From the IMG/VR virus record IMGVR_UViG_3300028833_000118, positions 25,388 through 89,387 of that record: 64,000 bases of DNA. One strand, given 5' to 3'. This DNA comes from a virus. Its lineage: Duplodnaviria > Caudoviricetes. This document shows, in pieces, positions 1 to 11,857 of this stretch (the stretch's first letter is position 1; each line of letters opens with the position of its first letter). The notes under the pieces are model-generated. The model was not told the DNA's origin and made no database searches. It was given only the letters and a program-made list of their open reading frames with translations. A program made the translations under genes and the position numbers.

Positions 1-1952
1 TACCAATTTCCGGTATCAATAAGCTCCTTCGCTTTCTTTGCTCTCTCCATTCGACTTTTTGCCGCATCATCCATCGGGAATGTCTCAGAATTATACCCAT
101 AATTACTCAGCGTCTTTTCCAGGCCCCCGAAAGAACTTTCTCTCGCAATCTCTTTCATTCTTCCACGTTCATCATATCCACGAACATGGAATATATGTCC
201 ATCATGCGTTATCTCAATACCGGCGTATTTTCCAAGATCCCCAAACGACTTCGCCTTAGCGTCGAACTCTTTTCTCACCTCTAAATACTTGTCATACGCC
301 GCTTCAACCTTCGGGTCTTTAATAAACTGCCTCGGGTCATATCCATACCTCTCACAGGTTCGGGCCATGTCATACATATCCCCATAACCAGAGATAGACA
401 TTTTATCTCCATCACGATCATAACCCCAAAGCTTATAATCCCCATCCGAATCGACTTCAATGACCGGATCTGTATATTTGCTCATTCCGAACGGAATAGC
501 TTTTGCTTCAAATTCTTTTCTCCGCTTTTCTCTCTCTTCCTCATATTTTTCTATCGCCGCTATCTTCTCTTTATCCTCATCACTAATGGTTAAGATATCA
601 TCCGAAACCCCATACGTTTTCATTAACCGCTCTTTAAACTGCCCATATGTTTCACCCGAGCTTTTCCTTTCATAATTCGCTCTATTACCATCCAGGTCAA
701 CACCATAGAACCTAACATCTCCATATGTACCTACTTTTATACCAACTTCCTGATACTCTTTATTTCCGAACTTTGCTACCGTCGCAGGGGGCTCATACTC
801 CATCGGGTTAAGTCTCTCTTTACCCTCTCTTGCCTTTTCTACTCCTTGTTCCTTCATGAACTTCATTGCCTCGGATCTGGTGCCGAAATTCCATGTTTTC
901 TTATGTCCATTCTCATCTTCACCTACAACATCCCACGACGTAGCCCAATACGATTCACTCTTCTTTAATTCCAGATCTCCATATTTGATTCCATCATCCC
1001 CGGTGACATATTCCTTCTTATCCGACGTAAGCCAACTGACTCGTTCTTTCTCTCTCTTCTTCAAAGACGGCGACAACTTCGCATCATCCGGGTTCATCCC
1101 TTTGGCACTTAAATAATCTCTCGCCATATCTAAAGACGGATACTCGGCTATTACCCTCTTCTTACCATCGAAATCTTTCCCGACCACAGAATACTTGCCT
1201 CCACGCAAACCAATAGAAACCTCTTCATATCCTCGCTCTCCATCATCGAACACCTTTTTCGGTAATTCCATTTCTTGAGGATTTACCATCTCTCCAGAAT
1301 CGGGATCTTGAAATTCTTCAACACCTTTTTCTTTGAGCCAATAGTACATATCACTCTTTGTATAGAATCTCTTGTACATATAACTCGGACTATAATGACC
1401 ATCTTCGGGCGCTTTTATTTTCTCCGCTCTCAAACTCCACGGGGCCTCTCCACGCCCTGCCCAACTCCGATACGATGCAGACAAGCTCCCATACTCTGCT
1501 CCACCATACCCTTCCATTTTTACACTCTTTACCGGCTCTTTCACGGGTTCCACATCAGGCGTTCCCGGATCTTCCCCTCTCTTTAATCTCTCATAAGCCC
1601 CTTCTGCTGTGATTCCCTTACCCGCCAGAGCATCCCAAGCCTCTTTCGGCCCCCATCCTTCTCCGATCTCAATACCAAACCTCATACAAAGCCCGAACGG
1701 AAGCCTCGTATTACCATGGCCTCCACCAGAACTTCCACCACCCTGATTATTGTTTTCATTCTCTTCATCATCTGGGGCGTCCATCCGAAACGGGTTTACA
1801 CTTTTTTCTTTTTTGATGGTTTCTACTTCGCCTTTTTGATAACTCATCACATCCAACGGAGCATCCCAATTGGGATTATACTTCGGTTTGATTCCCCTCA
1901 ATCCAAGCCGTTTCTCTCTTCTTTTCCTATATCTCAATATTGCATTGTCCAT
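1..1952 (-). CDS. Large leader-bearing protein with degenerate ~80-aa repeats (3' end runs off the window; absent from the ORF track)
   Basis: Manual translation from ATG at 1952 (RBS GAGAGGGG) is open to position 1: MDNAILRYRKRREKRLGLRG...FRMDAPDD...GGGHGNTRLPFGLC..., about 650 aa with no stop. Confidence 0.9.
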   Translation of the reverse strand, partial: MDNAILRYRKRREKRLGLRGIKPKYNPNWDAPLDVMSYQKGEVETIKKEKSVNPFRMDAPDDEENENNNQGGGSSGGGHGNTRLPFGLCMRFGIEIGEGWGPKEAWDALAGKGITAEGAYERLKRGEDPGTPDVEPVKEPVKSVKMEGYGGAEYGSLSASYRSWAGRGEAPWSLRAEKIKAPEDGHYSPSYMYKRFYTKSDMYYWLKEKGVEEFQDPDSGEMVNPQEMELPKKVFDDGERGYEEVSIGLRGGKYSVVGKDFDGKKRVIAEYPSLDMARDYLSAKGMNPDDAKLSPSLKKREKERVSWLTSDKKEYVTGDDGIKYGDLELKKSESYWATSWDVVGEDENGHKKTWNFGTRSEAMKFMKEQGVEKAREGKERLNPMEYEPPATVAKFGNKEYQEVGIKVGTYGDVRFYGVDLDGNRANYERKSSGETYGQFKERLMKTYGVSDDILTISDEDKEKIAAIEKYEEEREKRRKEFEAKAIPFGMSKYTDPVIEVDSDGDYKLWGYDRDGDKMSISGYGDMYDMARTCERYGYDPRQFIKDPKVEAAYDKYLEVRKEFDAKAKSFGDLGKYAGIEITHDGHIFHVRGYDERGRMKEIARESSFGGLEKTLSNYGYNSETFPMDDAAKSRMERAKKAKELIDTGNW

Positions 1953-2010
1953 ATATATTCCCCTCTCTATAAAGAAAAAAGAGGCATCGATTTCTCGACA
2001 CCTCTTTGAA

Positions 2011-3411
2011 TTACAACAGACTCTTTACATTGAACATCGGCTCTGCGAGCTCATTGAACGCATCCGAACTTCCATCCACCATATCATCATGTTTCCCATC
2101 CGGGAAGAACTCTAACTGCGACAAATACATATCATTCCAATCCGCCGCCAACACTTCCACATTCCCATTCTGCCATTGAGTCGCAAACGGCATTGCTCTC
2201 AAGATCTTACTTCCCGTTACTCTCTCACTCTTCACCGCATATCCCGCCAACTTCTTCACATACGCATCCGAGGCAATTTTTCCTGCCGCGCCCGGGTCAA
2301 TCGGGATGTGTATCTTGATCTTTCTTCCATACTTTGTCCTATCTGCCAAGGCCGTATTTAACAAGATCTTCTCCACATCTCCCGCCGCCACTCGAACATT
2401 TATCACATTCAAGACGATGAAATTTCCATTCTTCCTTCTACCCATCAATATACCAGCCGTGAAGTCTGGATCGTTATTTTCTGTTTTCTCCGTCGCCGCA
2501 AAGTCCCACGCCCGACATACCGAAACTATATCATCCGGCTCTTTCTCTACAATCCGAATCTGTGACCTCTTGAAATACAAGCCTCCTGCGGGTTTGATCT
2601 TCCAGTTACCCTTCAATAGACGCTCTCTCTCTACCTCAGGCAACGCTTTCAGATTTCCAAGATACTGCGGGTTTACCTTCAACAAAGCCTTATTGTCATA
2701 GACTGACGATGCAATAAACGTCACCGACCTTGGCTCACTCAATTCCTCTTCTGTCTTGAGATTGAACCTATCTATGAGCTCTTTTTTGCTATCCGCCCAA
2801 TATACGGTATTCTCTCTTCGGATCATCCACCTTACCACTCCTGATCTCTCCGGAATGGCATATCCAGTATCTTGATCGATCCACCATGAAATAAAATTAG
2901 CTACCCACGAATCCGGGTCTGGGTTGCATGATGCCAACACATACGGCCTGACACCACACATACTCCGGTTTCGGGATAGCATATAAAAGAAAACATATTC
3001 CGAAAAATGCGTTAACTCATCGAATTCAATACCACATATCTGAGCGCCCTGATAATTATGAGCCTCTTCATCTCTTTCAATATGCTTGAATGATACCCTC
3101 GAAAGAATGCTTCCATCTGTATCATGAAACTCCCAAGCCGCATCGCCCTTCTTGACCTCTGCCCCATCTATGCGAGAATACATATCCCGGGCATTGTCCC
3201 ATAGCGCACCCTCGGTAAATATCTGGTTTGAATTCTTCCGGAATATTACGCAACCGAATCCCCTTACATCTATGAACCTCAATGGATACGCGAGCTCCGC
3301 CCACGTTTTCCCTCCACCCGCAGCCCCACCATAGATAATAACATCCGCCGCGCTTCTAAGACATTTCTCCTGCGGACCTTTTTGGGGCTTTATGATAATG
3401 GGCTCATCCAT
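2011..3411 (-). CDS. terL: Terminase large subunit
   Basis: Walker A IIYGGAAGGGKT, Walker B-like IEFDE, coupling motif SCNP, RNase H-like nuclease AWDFA...HDDMVD. Confidence 0.95.
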   Translation of the reverse strand: MDEPIIIKPQKGPQEKCLRSAADVIIYGGAAGGGKTWAELAYPLRFIDVRGFGCVIFRKNSNQIFTEGALWDNARDMYSRIDGAEVKKGDAAWEFHDTDGSILSRVSFKHIERDEEAHNYQGAQICGIEFDELTHFSEYVFFYMLSRNRSMCGVRPYVLASCNPDPDSWVANFISWWIDQDTGYAIPERSGVVRWMIRRENTVYWADSKKELIDRFNLKTEEELSEPRSVTFIASSVYDNKALLKVNPQYLGNLKALPEVERERLLKGNWKIKPAGGLYFKRSQIRIVEKEPDDIVSVCRAWDFAATEKTENNDPDFTAGILMGRRKNGNFIVLNVINVRVAAGDVEKILLNTALADRTKYGRKIKIHIPIDPGAAGKIASDAYVKKLAGYAVKSERVTGSKILRAMPFATQWQNGNVEVLAADWNDMYLSQLEFFPDGKHDDMVDGSSDAFNELAEPMFNVKSLL

Positions 3412-3914
3412 TACTCGGGATCTTCATCCCTTTCAGGAAGATAAATTTGCACTCGGGATTTGGTTGTCAGCTCTCCATCGATATTAAGATTGATGCTCGC
3501 ACCATTCTCTTTCATATACTCCATCTGCTCTTCCTTCAATACGGTCAAAGAATCCAACCCTGCACTATCTCTCACATACTTCGCCGCATTCGCATCTCCC
3601 GCCATGGCCTTTACGATCATAGACGCTAAAATAGAAGCCGCATAACTCATCTCATCATTCGGGACTCCGAACCTCTCCATAATGGCCTTATGGTTCTTAT
3701 ATGCGTCTCCTACGGGCATTTCCAACATCTTTCGTGCCAGATCCATCATCATCCGATTGTTTCTTCTCTTTTCTCCAGACTTCTTTCCGGCGATTGACGC
3801 TTTCTCTTTTCTCTCTTCTGGAGTTCTCCTCGCGTTTATTTCCTCTATAGGCATAAGGTTCTGATTGCTTTTTTCTCTTCCCTTCACCTTTTCTTCTTTT
3901 TCCTTCTTTTCCAT
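3411..3914 (-). CDS. Probable terminase small subunit
   Basis: Directly upstream of and overlapping terL; basic N-terminus (ASIAGKKSGEKRR) and helical KAMAGDANAA segment typical of TerS-like proteins. Confidence 0.6.
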   Translation of the reverse strand: MEKKEKEEKVKGREKSNQNLMPIEEINARRTPEERKEKASIAGKKSGEKRRNNRMMMDLARKMLEMPVGDAYKNHKAIMERFGVPNDEMSYAASILASMIVKAMAGDANAAKYVRDSAGLDSLTVLKEEQMEYMKENGASINLNIDGELTTKSRVQIYLPERDEDPE

Positions 3915-3922
3915 TATTTAAC

Positions 3923-4708
3923 TCACACTCCCTTTATAGGCACATGGATTATAGGATTATAATCCAACGTCTTTCTCGTTTTCTTCTGATTGTGGTTATC
4001 TGTCGTATCATTCTTTACGATCTTCTTACCCCACTTTTTCTGTAGGGCTTTTAACTGTTGCTCTTCACGTTCCAGATTCCTATATGTGGCGCATCCTCCG
4101 GCCTGTTTCGACTGTTTACAATCATAATGGATTTTGTTCACTCTCAGACAGCCACGATACATCTCACAATTCTGCAACGTCATATCATAATCTTCCTTTA
4201 ACGGAAGGTTCTCATCATATCTCAAGGGGTTTCCATGAAGGAACGCCTGAAACGGCCCACCAATATACGATATCGTGCTGAAAGGAGTCGCCTGTCTATA
4301 TGACAACGCATCCATATTACACATGACTCCCCAATACTTGAATCCGAAATCATCGCACAGAATCGTATACTTCTCTATCATCCATAGAAACTCATCTGCA
4401 TCTATCGGTATATCATCATACCCATATACGCCTTTCGGCTCGAATCTCCCCATGATCTTCAAATCATCATCCACGATTACCACCACATCATTATCCGGTA
4501 GTTCTTTGTCTAAGATATAATTCCGAATCCGGCACAGATTTCCTTGCACTTCATTCGGCACCGAAATGATGTTTTCCTCATACCCCTTATTGGCTTTCAA
4601 ATAATCCTTATACTCATTTTCCGCTACCCAGACCTTGCAATACGGCAGATATTCCAACGTCTCTACATACGGTCTCTTATACGAAGGACAATTAATGCTG
4701 ATGTTCAT
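3923..4708 (-). CDS. GT-A fold glycosyltransferase, TET-associated/GREB1-like (TAGT) family
   Basis: PSYKRP N-terminus, RNYILD, DxD motif IVDDD, LKEDYD, late GGC motif. Confidence 0.75.
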   Translation of the reverse strand: MNISINCPSYKRPYVETLEYLPYCKVWVAENEYKDYLKANKGYEENIISVPNEVQGNLCRIRNYILDKELPDNDVVVIVDDDLKIMGRFEPKGVYGYDDIPIDADEFLWMIEKYTILCDDFGFKYWGVMCNMDALSYRQATPFSTISYIGGPFQAFLHGNPLRYDENLPLKEDYDMTLQNCEMYRGCLRVNKIHYDCKQSKQAGGCATYRNLEREEQQLKALQKKWGKKIVKNDTTDNHNQKKTRKTLDYNPIIHVPIKGV

Positions 4709-5360
4709 AATGCTCCCTCAGCTTCTCCAACGCCACATTACCCTTGAGAACTCTGCCGATTCCCCTTCTCTGCATATTGGCCTTTACTACTCCGTCTTTT
4801 CTTGTACTCAGATTCTTTACTTCCTTGATATCGAACAAAGACTCGGCCTGCAGCCAATCCACCTCATTGTCGAAATACAACACCAAATAATTGTGATCTT
4901 CCCCCAACACTTCGGTGAAAGGCACATCCCCCTTCTCTTCTTCCTTTTCCTTGGCTTTCTCATCCATGGCAAGGTCGAACCCGAACATCTCCATGTCGAT
5001 ATTGATAATGGCATTCAATTCCCCATTCAACAATTCAAGATCCCAATTGCTTAATTCAGCCGTCTTGTTGTGGGCTAATGCATACGCCCTTCTCTGCTCT
5101 TCATTCAAATGATCCAACCGAATAACGGGTACTTTCTCCATTCCAAGCTGTTTCGCCGCAAGAAGTCTGCCATGCCCTTCGACAATGACATTCTCGTCTC
5201 CCCATATTCCTATCGGATCATCAAAACCGAATTCCTTTATTGAATTCGCTATCGCCAGAACATCCCACTCATGGTGCTCTCTGGCATTGTCCTCATACGC
5301 CATGATTTCATCTACCGGCAAATACTCTATTTTGAGCTCCGCCTCTTTAACGACCTCCAT
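4692..5360 (-). CDS. ParB/Srx N-terminal domain protein
   Basis: NAREH, SIKEFGFDDPI, IVEGHGRLLAAKQLG, LAHNKTAELSNWD; start refined to ATG 5360 behind AGGAGG. Confidence 0.85.
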   Translation of the reverse strand: MEVVKEAELKIEYLPVDEIMAYEDNAREHHEWDVLAIANSIKEFGFDDPIGIWGDENVIVEGHGRLLAAKQLGMEKVPVIRLDHLNEEQRRAYALAHNKTAELSNWDLELLNGELNAIINIDMEMFGFDLAMDEKAKEKEEEKGDVPFTEVLGEDHNYLVLYFDNEVDWLQAESLFDIKEVKNLSTRKDGVVKANMQRRGIGRVLKGNVALEKLREHYEHQH

Positions 5361-5383
5361 GATTGACCTCCTAAAATAATAAA

Positions 5384-5411
5384 TCCCCGCTGTTTCCGGC
5401 ACAGACGGGGG
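5384..5411 (-). terminator. Putative intrinsic terminator-like hairpin
   Basis: CCCCG(T)CTGT/ACAG-CGGGG stem with one bulge followed by ATTTATTATTTT on the - strand. Confidence 0.45.
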
Positions 5412-5561
5412 AAGCCTTTATACACCCCAAACTATCAGTAAAGGGCTATTTTCTCCACGAATTACACTTTTCCGATAATTACTGGCGAAAATAATACACA
5501 CCGGCAAATTCTCCCGAAATTACCGATGTGTACTACCTTTTCGGTGACTCCACCGATATGG

Positions 5562-5747
5562 TCAGAACTCGCACTTATCTTCACCGCAACCGCAACCTTT
5601 TTCTGACGGCATCTTCATGACTTCCTCATGCAATTTATCCAACAAATCATTGATTTCCCTTTTCCATGTATAGAAACGAGAAATCAAACCAAGAACTTTT
5701 GCCTTATCGATCAAATCATTCATTTTTTCCTCCAGATGAACTAACAA
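5562..5747 (-). CDS. Hypothetical protein
   Basis: Tiles on the coding strand; no motif recognised. Confidence 0.5.
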   Translation of the reverse strand: MLVHLEEKMNDLIDKAKVLGLISRFYTWKREINDLLDKLHEEVMKMPSEKGCGCGEDKCEF

Positions 5748-5804
5748 AATCTAAATTTCTGCTAACAAATCTTCAAAATCTTCTAATTTCATATAACTAT
5801 ACTT

Positions 5805-6005
5805 TCAATATCCCAATCTTCTCAAACTCTCATCCACGCATTTCCATATCTCCAACGGAAATCTACGGGCATTTAACATCCCTACCAAAACCCTGATCCC
5901 TATATTGTCTGGACATTCCTTCTCCAATTTCCCTAATCCAATCCCATTTTTCCTCGCTTCATTGATCCGCCTTATAATATCTTTCTTGTACTCTGATTCT
6001 TGCAT
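5805..6005 (-). CDS. Hypothetical small helical protein (possibly HTH-like)
   Basis: Tiles with neighbours, RBS present. Confidence 0.65.
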   Translation of the reverse strand: MQESEYKKDIIRRINEARKNGIGLGKLEKECPDNIGIRVLVGMLNARRFPLEIWKCVDESLRRLGY

Positions 6006-6022
6006 TTCTACATTCCTCAGAA

Positions 6023-6556
6023 TTATTCCTTCACCTTTTTGGCACCATTAGCGATAAACTTTTCAACATTCGCTCGGCTCATTTCTACCGGCCTACTTGA
6101 TCCGCCCATCCATTGCAACGCCATTTTCCCACGGCTTCGCACTACTTTAAATTTTGATCCGCCACTTCCGAATCCTCCTCCGGCAGAATATACGTCTCCC
6201 TCATTGGCATTCTTCATAAATCTATCTATCGTTTCTTTTCTTTTCTTTTTTTCTTCTGCCGTAGCATATTTCACTCCGCCTACTCGAAATACCACCGGAA
6301 TCTTCTCATATACATCATCCCCACCAGAAATAACCCGCGCTCCATTCTTAGGCTCGGCCTCTTTTTCCGGCAAATCTTCTACCTTAATAGCCCTGTTCTT
6401 ATTTGACAACCCGCGCAATTTTTCAGGCCCCTTGGTGATGTTCTTATCATCATCCACCATTACATGAGTTCCCTTTATGGTAATCCAATCATCATCCATG
6501 CGCTTTTTCAGCCTTGAATCTCTTCGCTCTTTATATTTCTTTACCGACTCATCCAT
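6023..6556 (-). CDS. Leader-bearing putative virion cargo protein, unknown payload
   Basis: N-terminus MDESVKKYKERRDSRLKKRMDDDWITIKGTHV. Confidence 0.8.
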   Translation of the reverse strand: MDESVKKYKERRDSRLKKRMDDDWITIKGTHVMVDDDKNITKGPEKLRGLSNKNRAIKVEDLPEKEAEPKNGARVISGGDDVYEKIPVVFRVGGVKYATAEEKKKRKETIDRFMKNANEGDVYSAGGGFGSGGSKFKVVRSRGKMALQWMGGSSRPVEMSRANVEKFIANGAKKVKE

Positions 6557-6559
6557 TGA

Positions 6560-7156
6560 TTATCCCCCTATAATCAATTCACTATACGGCAACGTCTCGA
6601 TCCATTCACAAAACGCTCTCCACTCCGGGAGCCTATGCGTCTTTCTCTGCTTATAGATCGTTTTCAACTGTCTATAATTGGTTGTCATCCCCGCTGTCAA
6701 CTTGAACCCGGCTGGATTGCTATACAAGATCTCCAGATACTTCTTTTTCTTTTCCTCCGGCTGGAATATATCGATCATCGAATTATACTCATTGATCTTC
6801 TCTTTCATGATATCTATGATCCTCTGATCTACATACTCATTATAAGATTTATCCAGATCGAACTTTGTAATCCGATGCATGGTTGACTCGGAACTGATAA
6901 TATCCGCAAAATGATATCGTTCCATCTCTACCCACGCCTTATTTGTAAACGTCAAATCGAACTGGACCACAATTCCCAAAAGGAAATTATCATGCCCTTC
7001 ACCGATCCGACTTTTTGCCAACACCTTGATCCCATCCGTCAGCTCATTGTTGACAGACTCCGAATCAACCGACATAGGAAATTTCGCTCTCCGAAAACTG
7101 TCCTCCAGACCATACACCTGTGCATGGCTTACGCAAGAACAACCTTTGACCTCCAT
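6560..7156 (-). CDS. Divergent ThyX (flavin-dependent thymidylate synthase)-like protein
   Basis: ERYHFADIISSES in place of RHRxxSxxxxS; NYRQLKTIYKQRKTHRLPEWRAF parallels the ThyX C-terminal NxRxLxxFxxxR...EIR. Confidence 0.5.
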   Translation of the reverse strand: MEVKGCSCVSHAQVYGLEDSFRRAKFPMSVDSESVNNELTDGIKVLAKSRIGEGHDNFLLGIVVQFDLTFTNKAWVEMERYHFADIISSESTMHRITKFDLDKSYNEYVDQRIIDIMKEKINEYNSMIDIFQPEEKKKKYLEILYSNPAGFKLTAGMTTNYRQLKTIYKQRKTHRLPEWRAFCEWIETLPYSELIIGG

Positions 7157-7177
7157 ATAATCCTCCCGATAAATAAC

Positions 7178-7208
7178 AAAAGCCCGGTCACTTCTCGACC
7201 GAGCTTTT
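7178..7208. terminator. Bidirectional intrinsic terminator
   Basis: AAAAGC-C-CGGTC loop GACCG-A-GCTTTT with T tracts on both strands. Confidence 0.8.
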
Positions 7209-7288
7209 CTTTTCTTCTTTTGGCTTTTTCTTAATCACAATAACATCGCTGTCTGTGAACCTCGAAATATTCTTATCTTCCTCTTTCT

Positions 7289-8194
7289 TCATACTTCCTC
7301 CACCTCTAACATCACATACTTGCTATTTTTGAACGCTGCCTTATTGATCTTTAACTGCTGATTTATCATATTCATCATTGACCTTTCCCTATCGGTCAGA
7401 TCTTTCTTCTCACTATACTCTTTAACCAACTCATTGGCAAGGTCAAACTTTGAATACACCTTTTTCCCTACAACTCTCCACTTACTCGTGCTTGGCGCTA
7501 ACACCTCCGCCTCATAATCCCTAAATCGGCTCAAATGCTGCACACCCACCGCACTCTTATTATTCTTACACACCAACATCACACTTGACATTGATGGCCT
7601 ATCCACTTCTGCAAAATCTCTCGCCGCCGTTTTATCGCTGCTCCAACTTGATACAGACTTCATCTCTACCTCATCGCCATCCTCAAGATCGGCGAATCGA
7701 TCCACATCTCCCTTTCCATTCCAATCCGTAAAACTCATTCCACGATAGATTTCCCCATCATACGTTCCCATTCTGGCGAGTCCATCATCTATAATCTTCT
7801 CTTGATCTTTCTTCTTCCCCTCTGTGAACTCTCTATAATCCCCACCGAAATATCCCATCAACGTCTGATGCAATTTTTTTGCTTCTTTTTGCGAATACCC
7901 AGTCTCATCCATGATGCTATCCAACGCCTTTTTATTAAACGCCGTCAGATCCTTATCCGGCACTCTCCCCCCCTTTGCTTCAACCTGTCCTCTTCTTTCT
8001 CCATTCTTCTTACCATTCGCCGGGATATATTTATCTATTACATAGAAGTCCCCCTTCACCGGGCCTCCCACCGCTTTCCCATCCTTCACCGGGACATGAA
8101 CCCCATTTTTCAACGTGATCCAATCCAACTTATCAAATCTTTCTTCTAACCTCTTCTTCCGCCTCTTTTGATATCTCTTTACAGCATCATCCAC
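7289..8194 (-). CDS. ADP-ribosyltransferase (R-S-E clade, ExE type) with N-terminal leader
   Basis: IYRG, SSWSSD and YEAEVL motifs in the canonical order; start refined to GTG 8194 (MDDAVKRYQKRRKKRL), overlapping the upstream stop. Confidence 0.85.
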   Translation of the reverse strand: MDDAVKRYQKRRKKRLEERFDKLDWITLKNGVHVPVKDGKAVGGPVKGDFYVIDKYIPANGKKNGERRGQVEAKGGRVPDKDLTAFNKKALDSIMDETGYSQKEAKKLHQTLMGYFGGDYREFTEGKKKDQEKIIDDGLARMGTYDGEIYRGMSFTDWNGKGDVDRFADLEDGDEVEMKSVSSWSSDKTAARDFAEVDRPSMSSVMLVCKNNKSAVGVQHLSRFRDYEAEVLAPSTSKWRVVGKKVYSKFDLANELVKEYSEKKDLTDRERSMMNMINQQLKINKAAFKNSKYVMLEVEEV

Positions 8195-8543
8195 TCTCCA
8201 CCACCTCTTTTCTCTCGACCCCATACACAGCCTCTATGAATCGATCCGCATTCTCTATTGACGGATTCTTTCTATACTCATCTGCCGCAGACTCGATCTC
8301 TTTCCACATCCTCGAATGATGACCGACGATCTTTTTCGCATATACCAACACATCATTATCTGCCTTGAATCTCTTCAACGCATCTTTCTTCTGATTTTCA
8401 CCCTCAGATCTTGTTATCTCTCCCGCACGAAATCTTCCATACGAATCTTTCAACTCCCAATATAACGCTCTCTCCGCACAATTCATCTCGATTTCCGGCA
8501 TCTTTCCACTCGCCGCATACTTACTGATTTCTTCCCCTGTCAT
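8187..8543 (-). CDS. Hypothetical protein
   Basis: Tiles with neighbours. Confidence 0.7.
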   Translation of the reverse strand: MTGEEISKYAASGKMPEIEMNCAERALYWELKDSYGRFRAGEITRSEGENQKKDALKRFKADNDVLVYAKKIVGHHSRMWKEIESAADEYRKNPSIENADRFIEAVYGVERKEVVESG

Positions 8544-8547
8544 CTTC

Positions 8548-9006
8548 TCACCCCACCTTATAAACTCTCAATTCGCACCCATCCAACACCTTCATTTCCG
8601 GCCTCACTATCCTCTCCCATCCCAATTCTCTTTCTACAGCATCCCAGAACCCCTTAGCTCCATCATTCCTATCAAGGATATATAAACACACATCCCCATT
8701 CCAACCTTCCACAAGGCCCCTTGCAGCCTCCAATCCAACTTTCCTATTTCTCTCATCCTTTGCTATATAGAACTCACTGATATATAAGATCTTTTTCCTT
8801 CCCCTGAATGAAACTTCATTCTTGCACACGAACCCGCACAACACCCCACCATCGACAATGAAATCCGCATCCCACATTGTCTTGCTCCACATATCCTCAT
8901 CCCATACGATCCTTCGATCATATTCACTGAGCTCATCTACATATTCTTTTGCCAAACATATAAAGAATCCCCTGTCTTTATGGCAGGGGACAAACTCTAT
9001 GCTCAT
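8548..9006 (-). CDS. GNAT family acetyltransferase
   Basis: LYISEFYIAKDERNRKVG acetyl-CoA loop and NDGAKGFW motif B. Confidence 0.8.
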   Translation of the reverse strand: MSIEFVPCHKDRGFFICLAKEYVDELSEYDRRIVWDEDMWSKTMWDADFIVDGGVLCGFVCKNEVSFRGRKKILYISEFYIAKDERNRKVGLEAARGLVEGWNGDVCLYILDRNDGAKGFWDAVERELGWERIVRPEMKVLDGCELRVYKVG

Positions 9007-9248
9007 CCGGCTATCTCCCTCATTAATTTTCTCCCCCTTTTTTGCCCTTCACTTCTTCTGCGCCGGCTTTCTTCATCATAAGCCTTTTCATATTTTCTCA
9101 TGCAATTCCACCCACAAAAATACTTGATATTCCCATTCGCATGATGGTCGGCTTTTTTATATGTCCACATCCCTATCACCGGTACAAACACATTCTTCCC
9201 GCATACTTCACATTGGCACAGTACCGACTTATCCTGCTTCGACTCCAT
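9003..9248 (-). CDS. Small Zn-binding hypothetical protein
   Basis: CEVCG...YFCGWNC cysteine pairs. Confidence 0.7.
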   Translation of the reverse strand: MESKQDKSVLCQCEVCGKNVFVPVIGMWTYKKADHHANGNIKYFCGWNCMRKYEKAYDEESRRRRSEGQKRGRKLMREIAG

Positions 9249-9368
9249 TAATGACCTCCTATAATTAAAAATGCGGGATTTTCACCCGCGCTGCTTGTTT
9301 CAGCCCACGGCTCACGCTCCATGAGTCATCAACCTTGTGGCAAGGAGTAAAACAAAAGAAGAGAACCA

Positions 9369-9542
9369 TCAATATTTGATTTTCTTGCCTATCTTGATCT
9401 CATATAGCCATCCCATTTTCACTCGGCACCTATCGCAATAATCTCTTTCATTCGACCATATCAGATAAACCCGATATCCCGCCTCACGATACTCAGATAA
9501 GCAAGAAGGGCAAAGTGTGCGAATATCTTTTCCACCCCGCAC
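9369..9542 (-). CDS. Small Zn-ribbon hypothetical protein (57 aa, below the ORF-track cutoff)
   Basis: Manual translation from GTG: MRGGKDIRTLCPSCLSEY...YCDRCRVKMG; purine-rich RBS upstream. Confidence 0.55.
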   Translation of the reverse strand: MRGGKDIRTLCPSCLSEYREAGYRVYLIWSNERDYCDRCRVKMGWLYEIKIGKKIKY

Positions 9543-9658
9543 TCCTCATTCCCCCTTACGAAACGTCGCTGTGCGGTTAAGCACAGCGACATTCGTCATC
9601 TATAAGGGAAACCACAAGAAACTTTCAATCCGAAAGCACTTATCAGGAAATCCCTTTT

Positions 9659-9732
9659 TGGAGCGCCAAAGGGGAATCGAACCCCTACACTCAGATTGGA
9701 AATCTGACAGACTACCATTATCCTACTGGCGC
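9659..9732 (-). tRNA. tRNA-Gly(TCC)
   Basis: GCGCCAG/TTGGCGC acceptor stem, TCAGA-TTTCCAA-TCTGA anticodon arm, GGTTCGATTCC T-arm, encoded CCA. Confidence 0.95.
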
Positions 9733-9873
9733 ATATCGTACGGGGCCGATGTACTCATGTTCGGTCTGTGCGAAAGGTCATTCCTCTCTGGGGCACAGAC
9801 ACTTTCCACCGGCTTTTCATTCTCTGTTGGTGTTGCCCGCGCAGCCAACATCATCCGGGAGCGACCCGGCCTC

Positions 9874-9961
9874 TGGCGCTTGCGGTAGGATTTGAACCCA
9901 CAAGGACTTCCATCCTCTCTCGGTTTTCAAGACCGGGCAGTTACCATTACTGTACGCAAGC
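9874..9961 (-). tRNA. tRNA-Ser(TGA)
   Basis: GCTTGCG/CGCAAGC acceptor stem, CTTGAAA anticodon loop, long variable arm, GGTTCAAATCC T-arm, G discriminator and CCA. Confidence 0.92.
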
Positions 9962-10087
9962 ATTAAAATCGGCCGCCTCTCCACTCATGCCGATTGTCTG
10001 TGTCGTACACAGCAGATTGGCGGTCGCGAGAACATAGACCAGATCCCGACACCCGGTCTATTCAAGAACACATCCGCGAACGGCCTA

Positions 10088-10705
10088 CTATGCTCTTTCG
10101 TTTTTTATTTTTACTTCACCAAAACATATCCCATTTTTCAAGATCTGCTCCCCGATATCATTTCCGCCTTCTGCACCATCCGGTGTTCCCACCAAATACA
10201 AAGTAGGCATATCTCCATAAGCATATTGCCCGACAAGATTTATCGCTTTTTCCAAATCTTCTTTTTTTAAGCCGCCATTCCCATCTTTAATCCCTACCGT
10301 TGATACTCCATCTAATTCTCCCGCATCCCACATTCCTTTTCTTTTACTGAACTTGGCTTCTTCTCCCCACTCTCTCGGATCATCTTGATACCATTGATGC
10401 GAATTCTTAAACACATGCCCCGCCTTTTTCCCCGGCTTATCTGCTCGCAACCCGAAACTCCACCATTGTCCTGATTTTTCATAATAATCATTTATCAGAT
10501 CTGCCACATCTTGCAGATCATCAAATGTTTTTGAAAATTTACCTACAGGCCCACTTTCAAAATCAAAATTACCGTCACCGGAATTATCAACCCCTCCAGA
10601 TGAAATGAACCTCCCATTTTCCCCTCTTGGATGCTTGCTCGAATTCCACTCTTTTTCATCCATCCTTCTTTTTCGCCTTTTTCTGTATTTTTCTACCGCA
10701 TCCAT
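10088..10705 (-). CDS. Leader-bearing putative virion cargo protein (HPR motif; possible ART-like payload)
   Basis: MDAVEKYRKRRKRRMDEKEWNSSKHPRGENGRF. Confidence 0.8.
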   Translation of the reverse strand: MDAVEKYRKRRKRRMDEKEWNSSKHPRGENGRFISSGGVDNSGDGNFDFESGPVGKFSKTFDDLQDVADLINDYYEKSGQWWSFGLRADKPGKKAGHVFKNSHQWYQDDPREWGEEAKFSKRKGMWDAGELDGVSTVGIKDGNGGLKKEDLEKAINLVGQYAYGDMPTLYLVGTPDGAEGGNDIGEQILKNGICFGEVKIKNERA

Positions 10706-10871
10706 ACATCTACCCCCTCAATGTACTTTCATCTCGGTTTTCCTTTTGGCAGACCGAAAACTGCCATCCCGTTTCTCCCAATTATTCTACCATACCAAGA
10801 AATAAGAGGGAACTATAACACTTCAATCCCCCACGCATAACGCAAGGTTTCAAGGCAAGGCAAACATCAAA

Positions 10872-11102
10872 TCAATACAACAAACTCAGATTTTCGGCCG
10901 CTGTACTGATGCAATATCCGAACGCAATTTTCTCATTCGGATTCTTTTTGAACCTCTCGACTCCCTCTTTATAGAACTTCTCCATGATCTCCACGCTGTC
11001 ATCTTCTTCAAGATACTTTTCAAGATCCTCCGGGTCATCCGCTTTTCTCTCATCGACTAACTCTTTCAAACATCTCTTCTTAAACTCTTTGAACGAAATC
11101 AC
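10872..11102 (-). CDS. Hypothetical acidic protein
   Basis: Start overlaps the stop of the upstream gene. Confidence 0.7.
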   Translation of the reverse strand: MISFKEFKKRCLKELVDERKADDPEDLEKYLEEDDSVEIMEKFYKEGVERFKKNPNEKIAFGYCISTAAENLSLLY

Positions 11103-11857
11103 AACTTCCCATCCCTTTCTTTGTATGCCTCATCATATTCTTTTGGCTCCGCCATTTTCATAAACTCTTCAATCGGCGTTGTGTTGACTTTACCGGTATA
11201 TTTGAAAAATACTATTGGCTCTCTCTTTACCGCAAGTTGTTCGTCTCCCGGCTTTTCCTTCATGCCATTCCACTGTTCTCTCGTAAACCCATTCGCTTCA
11301 AGCCAATCATCATTCGCATATTCATCATCCCACTTCGTCCAACTCACAGGCTCGAATCCGCACTTTTGATAGAACCCATATATTCCGGCATAAGCATCCA
11401 ACTTATTTCCACCGGCTTTGACGGCATCTGCAAGTATATCTCTTCCCCTATCTCCCTTTTCAGCATTCGCGGCAACACTCACGATATCCGTCCCATGCAA
11501 CGCAAAGGTTGATCCATTCTCATTCATATACTTGTCCATTCCCTTGTAATCATCGGCAGAATAATCATCACTCACACGCCATCTTTTGTCCGGCTTCATC
11601 CCACTTCTCAATTTGGAAAATCCACCTTTGAAATCGACCGCAGAGCTCGTTTTCCCAAATTTTGGCGTTGATCCTCTCGGCTTCGGTTCGGCCTTTACCG
11701 CTCCACCGCCATTACCGGGCGCGAACTTTCCATCTTCATCTCTAGGATGCTTTTTTTCTTCCCAATCAACGTCTAACCGAAAACCTCGTTTCTTTAACCG
11801 CCCATCTCTCCGAATTTTATATTTTTTGATTGCTCTTTTATCCACCATAAGTGTCAC
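11099..11857 (-). CDS. Leader-bearing putative virion cargo protein with GNAT-like payload
   Basis: DKRAIKKYKIRRDGRL...RLD..WEEKKHPRDEDGKF; C-terminal DIVSV...GRDIL..AVKAGGNKLDAY..IYGFYQKCGF. Confidence 0.8.
   Translation of the reverse strand: MTLMVDKRAIKKYKIRRDGRLKKRGFRLDVDWEEKKHPRDEDGKFAPGNGGGAVKAEPKPRGSTPKFGKTSSAVDFKGGFSKLRSGMKPDKRWRVSDDYSADDYKGMDKYMNENGSTFALHGTDIVSVAANAEKGDRGRDILADAVKAGGNKLDAYAGIYGFYQKCGFEPVSWTKWDDEYANDDWLEANGFTREQWNGMKEKPGDEQLAVKREPIVFFKYTGKVNTTPIEEFMKMAEPKEYDEAYKERDGKL

Follow-up and report, generated by a model that had tools for sequence, protein, structure and literature searches.

Our subject is the 64,000-nucleotide stretch of the IMG/VR virus record IMGVR_UViG_3300028833_000118 (Duplodnaviria; Caudoviricetes), called the window below, which covers bases 25,388–89,387 of a single 89,387-bp phage contig. 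Around its terminase genes lie five open reading frames (ORFs), P1 to P5, whose products begin with the same arginine-rich leader. A sequence-only reading of the window had taken this leader for a swappable address tag with a possible protease site at RxD. All five ORFs are present on the minus strand, where that reading had placed them and with the leader sequences it described.

Window 1..1952, minus strand: P1, running off the left edge of the window; 1077 amino acids (aa) in full; directly downstream of the large terminase subunit gene (TerL), with a strong ribosome-binding site; leader helix 1905-1952, R-M-D 1779-1787, start of the GHGNT..PFGLC domain 1686-1721, remainder repeat-rich
Window 6023..6556, minus strand: P2, 177 aa; helix 6509-6556, R-M-D 6494-6502, W-I-T..G-T-H-V adaptor 6428-6487
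Window 7289..8194, minus strand: P3, GTG start, 301 aa; leader 8147-8194, R-F-D 8132-8140, W-I-T adaptor 8063-8122
Window 10088..10705, minus strand: P4, 205 aa; leader 10661-10705, R-M-D 10658-10666, W..H-P-R..G-R-F adaptor 10607-10648
Window 11099..11848, minus strand: P5, ATG start preferred, 249 aa; leader 11795-11848, R-L-D 11771-11779, W..H-P-R..G-K-F adaptor 11723-11764

Anatomy of the shared leader

When the whole contig is translated in six frames, a strict helix pattern, [KR]-Y-[RKQ]-x-R-R-x(2,3)-R-[LM], has exactly five matches, one at the N-terminus of each of the five ORFs. The number expected by chance is about 0.01 (a rough estimate from residue frequencies). Looser patterns and hidden Markov models (HMMs) revealed three more leader proteins, of 402, 438 and 941 aa, all encoded to the left of the window, and none elsewhere in the six frames. 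This agrees with the earlier observation that no other ORF of the window carries the leader. The tagged set comprises at least eight proteins in this genome. The eight are otherwise unrelated and bear the tag right at the N-terminus; wherever the start is well defined, the tag begins at residue 2. According to the Shine-Dalgarno sites, the leader begins at residue 2 in P1, P2 and P4, and P3 starts at GTG 8194. P5 had been read from GTG 11857; its start is most likely ATG 11848, which the Shine-Dalgarno site favours. When the leaders were compared with each other, identical residues shared a codon in only 34% of cases, and the nucleotide identity was 55%. The low sharing of codons indicates that conservation acts on the peptide and not on the DNA.

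An alignment of many copies showed that the leader consists of two parts. The first is the helix, [DN]-x-[AS]-[VI]-x-x-[YF]-[RK]-x-R-R-x-x-R-[LIM], which is at times doubled. The second is a junction made up of [RK]-[MLF]-D and acidic residues in a run, after which comes one of several mini-modules: W-[IV]-T-x(2-5)-G-x-H-[VI] with a Gly/Lys-rich tail (the W adaptor), or W-x(3-5)-H-P-R-x(3)-G-x-F (the H-P-R adaptor). In P1 and the 438-aa protein the junction runs straight into a common domain of about 90 aa that starts with GHGNT..PFGLC. Thus, all three kinds of second module named in the sequence-only reading are real, the third being the start of this domain. That reading was right that the tag is shared. 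It had also treated the leader as one strictly N-terminal unit, and in this respect it has to be revised: the helix and the junction are separable, and internal copies exist. R-[MFL]-D, which it had assigned to the leader, belongs to the junction, because it also stands ahead of copies without the helix, both internal and portal-fused.

In the AlphaFold2 (AF2) model of P2, obtained with a 12-sequence alignment, a helix (residues 3-21) leads into a β-hairpin (24-34) with a third strand; residues 51-95 form a disordered linker, and residues 100-174 are folded into a compact payload. The model is of moderate confidence, with a predicted local distance difference test score (pLDDT) of 58-75 in the module and 80-89 in the payload. 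No model of the leader or of the adaptor is present in Pfam, PHROGs or NCBIfam. The sole database-family match over the module is a weak one, between the P4 adaptor region and phrog_30637 (function not assigned), a 1119-position profile whose other parts match the portal and the DUF2213 scaffold of the same phage. By tblastn, the 50-aa module matched none of 50,697 GenBank phage records. An ESM Atlas feature search found nothing, and its structural rows, a portal cluster and a DUF2213 cluster, are too weak for use.

Genomic position, distribution and payloads

The eight tagged genes lie within 24 kb of the 89-kb genome, around the genes of the small and large terminase subunits (TerS and TerL), the portal, MuF and the scaffold, and none lies in the other 65 kb. 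Under uniform placement, the probability of such clustering is about 3e-5. The portal, MuF and a candidate protease or scaffold, which had been expected to the left of the window, were all located there. The genes that define this region, together with two further ORFs left of the window (for which L001 and L002 coordinates are given), are as follows.

Window 2011..3411, minus strand: TerL (Pfam Terminase_6N/6C; phrog_979), inside the cargo cluster
Window 3411..3914, minus strand: probable TerS, upstream of TerL; matches phrog_2412 (no function assigned), and its homologue in phage FP_Brigit is annotated as terminase small subunit
L002:6404-8521 (genome 21404-23521), left of the window: portal (PF06381) with a C-terminal NUDIX domain
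L001:11442-12959, left of the window: DUF2213 protein of 505 aa, the scaffold/protease candidate
L002:5196-6404, left of the window, after the portal: 402-aa protein with two helices in tandem
L002:3686-4348, left of the window: 220-aa ORF with a degenerate leader-like stretch and then R-M-D; weakly similar to a portal PHROG over the latter's C-terminal part

The same arrangement was found in relatives. On about 15 distinct IMG/VR contigs, found via TerL or the adaptor, the tagged ORFs, 3-7 per phage, occupy the interval from TerL to the DUF2213 gene or the sequence immediately upstream of TerL. Each related contig with enough flanking sequence carries the same set of portal, DUF2213, cement and capsid genes; some tagged relatives have no MuF within the region examined. 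The leader is thus enriched near head-morphogenesis genes, as had been predicted for an address tag.

We then consider the distribution of the module among proteins in general. We compared a profile of the helix and the W/H-P-R adaptor (alignment A2) with 1.84 billion representative proteins; it matched 377 protein clusters at E<=1e-3, 105 at E<=1e-10 and 6 at E<=1e-30. Among the best 150 of the 377, 96 are no longer than 560 aa and have the helix in the first 60 residues; the rest are long proteins, up to 2,056 aa, with 2-6 adaptor copies. An HMM made from the five window leaders only matched 70 of these best 150, and the match started at residues 1-4 in 46 of the 70. The matches are therefore not generic basic N-termini: they form 377 clusters with diverse payloads, and the leader mostly starts at residues 1-4. 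Contigs encoding three of the profile matches were only 2-9 kb long and offered little context. Some adaptor-bearing proteins (L091, L099, P0002, P0017, P0049) begin otherwise, with L-x-R-I-R-R-S-L-type helices or an M-T-T-x-E-F..A-V-x-x-F-V-x-x-Y-R domain; these N-termini may be alternative tethers.

In other members of the same head lineage, the cassette is interchanged with a portal fusion. There, the portal domain is continued by identical cassettes (R/H-Φ-D, acidic run, W or H-P-R adaptor, payload), for example in single polypeptides of 850, 1,149 and 1,393 aa, and the 1,814-aa protein P0012 has the order portal, NUDIX, adaptor and ADP-ribosyltransferase (ART). Alternatively, cassettes are chained three per protein of about 1,400-1,850 aa. 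The portal of FP_Brigit has R-M-D and the H-P-R adaptor at about residue 684 and an extension of about 140 residues; this phage has no other form of the cassette than the portal-fused one. The leader HMM did not find the Arg helix on portal-fused and chained cassettes. The helix appears where the cassette has no covalent link to a virion protein, and this is what would be expected of a non-covalent tether. The junction stands at every portal-payload and payload-payload border. Such a position fits a release site, because a portal-fused payload must be cut in order to leave the particle.

The payloads are varied. That of P3 is an ADP-ribosyltransferase, as had been proposed: it matches phrog_16619 (minor head protein) and phrog_832 (Alt-type ADP-ribosylase), and tblastn leads to minor capsid proteins of other phages. 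The labels once given to P4 (possibly ART-like) and P5 (GNAT-like) were backed by no search. PDB sequence searches with the payloads of P4 and P5 gave only chance or low-complexity matches, and the P5 payload has no family or structure match. The P2 payload is modelled as a small α/β domain after the disordered linker; a Foldseek search of the P2 model against the PDB gave no match at E<=0.001. To the left of the window, residues 201-375 of the 402-aa protein match a small alarmone synthetase (PDB 8vx3, E=1.2e-4), and this protein also matches the C-terminal region of XopAD. An HD-domain protein is encoded two genes downstream of it. The 438-aa protein has two helices and then the GHGNT domain. 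The 941-aa protein has the helix and the W adaptor at its N-terminus, repeated at about residue 460, and is the only one with a two-cassette architecture; the five window proteins show one payload each. The 220-aa ORF may be a ninth, decayed cargo gene. A Pfam scan of the 96 short tagged proteins assigned six to ADPrib_exo_Tox, two each to HD, Gln_amidase (glutamine deamidase) and ATLF (lethal-factor-type peptidase), and one member each to GNAT families and ADP-ribosyl cyclase; the majority have no family.

All long ORFs of the contig are on the minus strand, and the GC skew is strongly negative across its whole length. In the order of transcription, the window starts with early and replication genes, followed by P5, P4, two tRNA genes, GNAT, P3, a ThyX-like ORF, P2, a ParB-like protein, a TAGT-like glycosyltransferase, the probable TerS and TerL. 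Left of the window, the order continues with P1, the portal-NUDIX fusion, the 402-aa protein, an HD protein, the 220-aa ORF, the 438-aa protein, MuF (a separate 318-aa gene), the 941-aa protein, the 505-aa DUF2213 protein, a cement protein and the PF09950 major capsid protein. FP_Brigit, a myovirus of Faecalibacterium, is the cultured phage with the closest capsid protein (61% identity), and the host is therefore probably a member of the gut Clostridia. The tRNA genes, tRNA-Gly(tcc) at window 9659-9732 and tRNA-Ser(tga) at 9874-9961, are on the minus strand in an ORF-free gap between P4 and the zinc-finger/GNAT genes. The ParB-N-like and TET-associated-glycosyltransferase-like proteins, at window 3923-5402 directly upstream of the terminase genes, are both weak matches below the Pfam cut-offs. 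A ParB gene likewise adjoins TerS in FP_Brigit.

A candidate head-loading tag and its alternatives

We put the probability that the shared leader is an address tag loading enzymes into the virus head at about 0.6. The idea of a swappable tag with a possible protease site at RxD passes every comparative check that was run, with the correction that the leader comprises two separable modules and is not strictly N-terminal. Each cargo protein would be built of an Arg-rich amphipathic helix in one or two copies, an adaptor of R-Φ-D, acidic run and β-hairpin, a flexible linker and a variable payload. The helix may serve as a non-covalent tether that draws the cargo into the assembling procapsid, which would comprise the PF06381 portal, the DUF2213 scaffold, the cement protein and the PF09950 capsid protein.

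The binding partner of the helix may be the scaffold. We ran an HMM of the leader core (22 columns, made from 161 leader cores of the database matches) over 17,112 six-frame ORFs from 80 TerL-related loci and this genome. Besides one marginal match (E 0.05), it picked out the N-termini of cargo proteins and a single segment inside the DUF2213 protein, around residue 226 (E about 1e-4), and nothing else. This segment lies just after the DUF2213 domain and is predicted to be helical (AF2, pLDDT about 78). When 19 such proteins are aligned, little is conserved from the N-terminal domain to the helix-turn-helix, and the motif of this segment, E-E-[LF]-x-[KE]-A-I-x-x-Y-K-x-[RS]-[RK], is one of the exceptions. 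Because the leader core resembles this conserved helical segment, we infer that the cargo helix copies the scaffold helix. As a hypothesis, the likeliest route would be that the cargo co-assembles with the scaffold core or takes the docking site of the scaffold helix. Between the helix-turn-helix and the C-terminal helices, the DUF2213 protein also has a hyper-acidic Glu/Asp tract of about 100 residues, a possible electrostatic partner of the Arg-rich leaders. A homologue of this protein is the scaffolding protein gp24 of phage Pa193 (PDB 9b40). Gp24 is found in mature virions, where its helix-turn-helix (residues 286-326) is bound beneath the five-fold vertices; beneath the hexons there is a helical density, about 16 residues long and unassigned (PMC11456595).

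The junction, in turn, may be a maturation or release element. The capsid protein has, at about residue 30, R/H-[FYL]-D with S/G/D/E after it, a feature kept in 29 homologues down to 32% identity. In the scaffold, R-L-D, R-M-D and R-L-D-G-K stand at invariant or conserved positions, and [RH]-x-D-[GS] precedes the leader-like helix. In the head/cargo region, R-Φ-D reaches a density of 2.0 per 1,000 residues, versus 0.7 in the rest of the genome, a difference of about 3-fold. For comparison, the capsid protein of Pa193 is modelled only from residue 66, and its portal without the first 93 residues. The occurrence of R-Φ-D in capsid, scaffold and cargo fits the action of one Asp-directed maturation protease at these sites, and this is a fit, not a proof. 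The sole candidate for such a head protease is the DUF2213 domain, with H74, H110, S124 and H154 invariant in 19 homologues; it is labelled as a head maturation protease by PHROGs alone. After a possible cut at R-Φ-D, the released payload would enter the next host cell together with the DNA. A more far-reaching scheme, which we regard as doubtful, concerns the whole lineage of Clostridia gut phages with Brigitvirus-like heads. In this scheme, the scaffold-mimicking helix would dock any payload, and DUF2213 would be a new family of Asp-specific prohead proteases that cut R-Φ-D in the capsid protein, scaffold, portal fusions and cargo and so free customisable injected effectors.

Several observations weigh against head loading by scaffold mimicry with cleavage at R-Φ-D. 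R-Φ-D is only three residues long, and capsid and scaffold proteins could keep it for structural reasons. No protease family came up when 19 scaffolds were scanned with Pfam at E<=5, and the AF2 model of the DUF2213 domain (pLDDT 30-55) is too poor for a fold search. The Pa193 homologue of the DUF2213 protein is described only as a scaffolding protein (PMC11456595). The leader-like segment is absent from Pa193 gp24, and some of the 19 aligned scaffolds keep only the A-I-x-x-Y-K core without arginines; therefore, the likeness of leader and scaffold may be convergent. Many relatives have the scaffold segment and no tagged cargo in the sequence examined. Moreover, a purely N-terminal address does not need the internal leader copies seen in two-cassette proteins. 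Finally, four of the five window cargo genes are not part of the classical head operon: they lie upstream of the terminase genes and have non-structural neighbours (ParB, glycosyltransferase, GNAT).

It is also conceivable that the conserved element is a processing or joint module of split polyvalent proteins. In that case the R-Φ-D/acidic/W-adaptor unit would mark cassette borders for cutting or recombination, and the helix would be an accessory without a targeting role, for example a solubility or chaperone handle; the cargo would enter the head otherwise or never. Conserved pre-toxin motifs do mark swappable toxin domains in polymorphic toxins; systems of this type are the subject of PMC3482391. 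Here, too, junction and adaptor precede every payload in the giant and portal-fused proteins without the helix, and cassettes occur both fused and free. However, this explanation does not account for the conservation of the helix at the protein level, its position at residues 1-4 in dozens of clusters and its frequent tandem duplication. Nor does it explain why the helix is present just where covalent anchoring is missing, or why it resembles a scaffold segment. We consider it unlikely.

Another explanation is that the Arg helix serves to bind nucleic acid, as do the arginine-rich motifs found in lambdoid N proteins or T4's basic internal proteins. The cargo would then ride out with the genome, or the enzymes would be sent to nucleic acid or ribosomes in the infected cell. 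The M-D-A start, the R/K-rich helix and a Trp about 20 residues in are reminiscent of the boxB-binding peptide of lambda N, and the basic internal proteins of T4 do leave the head together with the DNA. However, loading must precede the entry of DNA into the procapsid, so DNA binding alone does not load a protein. The conserved non-basic positions ([AS]-[VI], Y/F, L/I/M) are shared with the scaffold, a protein that does not bind nucleic acid. A repeated RNA hairpin that could be the cognate partner did not turn up, and none was searched for. As a replacement for the tether, nucleic-acid binding seems improbable to us; it is compatible with head loading as a second role of the same helix.

That there is no functional tag at all is hardly credible: similar 5' ends of neighbouring genes and the twin arginines could suggest a DNA-level signal, 5' ends that were recently duplicated or gene-converted, or a Tat-like secretion signal, but a DNA-level repeat or recent duplication is contradicted by the differing synonymous codons between copies, a Tat/Sec signal is rejected because R-R is followed by charged residues and the acidic run without a hydrophobic h-region, and the module occurs in hundreds of divergent clusters.

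Comparison with known systems

Phages inject proteins together with their DNA, and the choice of cargo is understood in few models, namely the T4 targeting sequence, the Dar system of P1, and MuF or portal fusions. The leader described here is a candidate loading tag that is defined by sequence and widespread (377 clusters), for an abundant and little-studied lineage of gut Firmicutes phages. If it is indeed an address tag, the set of injected effectors of these phages could be read directly from their genomes. Since most payloads have no known family, they would then be a rich source of host-takeover or anti-defence enzymes. DUF2213 would gain a testable function and specificity, and there would be a handle for studying, in laboratory strains, how such phages deliver proteins. 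If the scheme of scaffold mimicry and R-Φ-D cleavage is true, the tag would be portable and could load designed proteins into them.

The payload repertoire recalls the polyvalent proteins. According to Iyer et al. 2017 (PMC5512222), these proteins carry ART, NUDIX, HD, GNAT and peptidase payloads, are linked to portal and MuF, and are proposed to be delivered with DNA. For their processing, that article puts forward zincin-like metallopeptidases, of which our scans of the proteins here found none. The repertoire, the portal/MuF link and the proposed delivery with DNA are shared with our system, and relatives of this phage have true polyvalent forms with the same W adaptor. In contrast to polyvalent proteins, the payloads here are mostly separate genes, each with its own leader. 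A term search of Iyer et al. 2017 (PMC5512222) did not bring up a leader, a linker, this Arg helix or the W/H-P-R junction. The polymorphic MuF toxins are similar in that variable toxin-like domains are attached to a head-incorporation module. In the toxins of temperate phages described by Jamet et al. 2017 (PMC5576092), the variable C-terminal domains (ART, alarmone-synthetase-like) are covalently fused to the MuF domain, and a term search of that article did not bring up the leader motifs. In our phage, by contrast, MuF (PF04233) is a separate gene and no cargo protein has a MuF match.

Entry into the procapsid by binding to the scaffold or to the capsid interior is a known route for minor and ejected proteins. 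The ejection proteins of P22 are loaded in a scaffold-dependent manner, and the HK97 protease has a C-terminal capsid-targeting tail. In the herpesvirus protease-scaffold, with its release and maturation sites, the scaffold-fused protease cuts itself and its partners at a short consensus. None of these systems shares sequence with the leader and, to our knowledge, a tag that copies a scaffold segment has not been described for P22, HK97 or herpesviruses. Pa193 differs in that its gp24 is without the leader-like segment, and no tagged cargo is known in this phage.

The capsid-targeting sequence of T4 is likewise a short N-terminal tag; carried by the internal proteins IPI-III and by Alt, it targets them to the scaffold core and is followed by a site for the prohead protease. 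The likeness lies in a short N-terminal tag on unrelated proteins, including an ADP-ribosyltransferase, which is injected in T4. No sequence likeness is apparent: the leader here is Arg-rich and then has R-Φ-D, versus the L/I-x-E site of T4 gp21. In addition, the tag described here is a helix of about 20 residues with an adaptor of 20-40 residues, it can be internal or in tandem, it belongs to a head with a DUF2213 scaffold and a PF09950 capsid, and its part in loading and cleavage is a proposal. The leader is most likely an address tag new to description.

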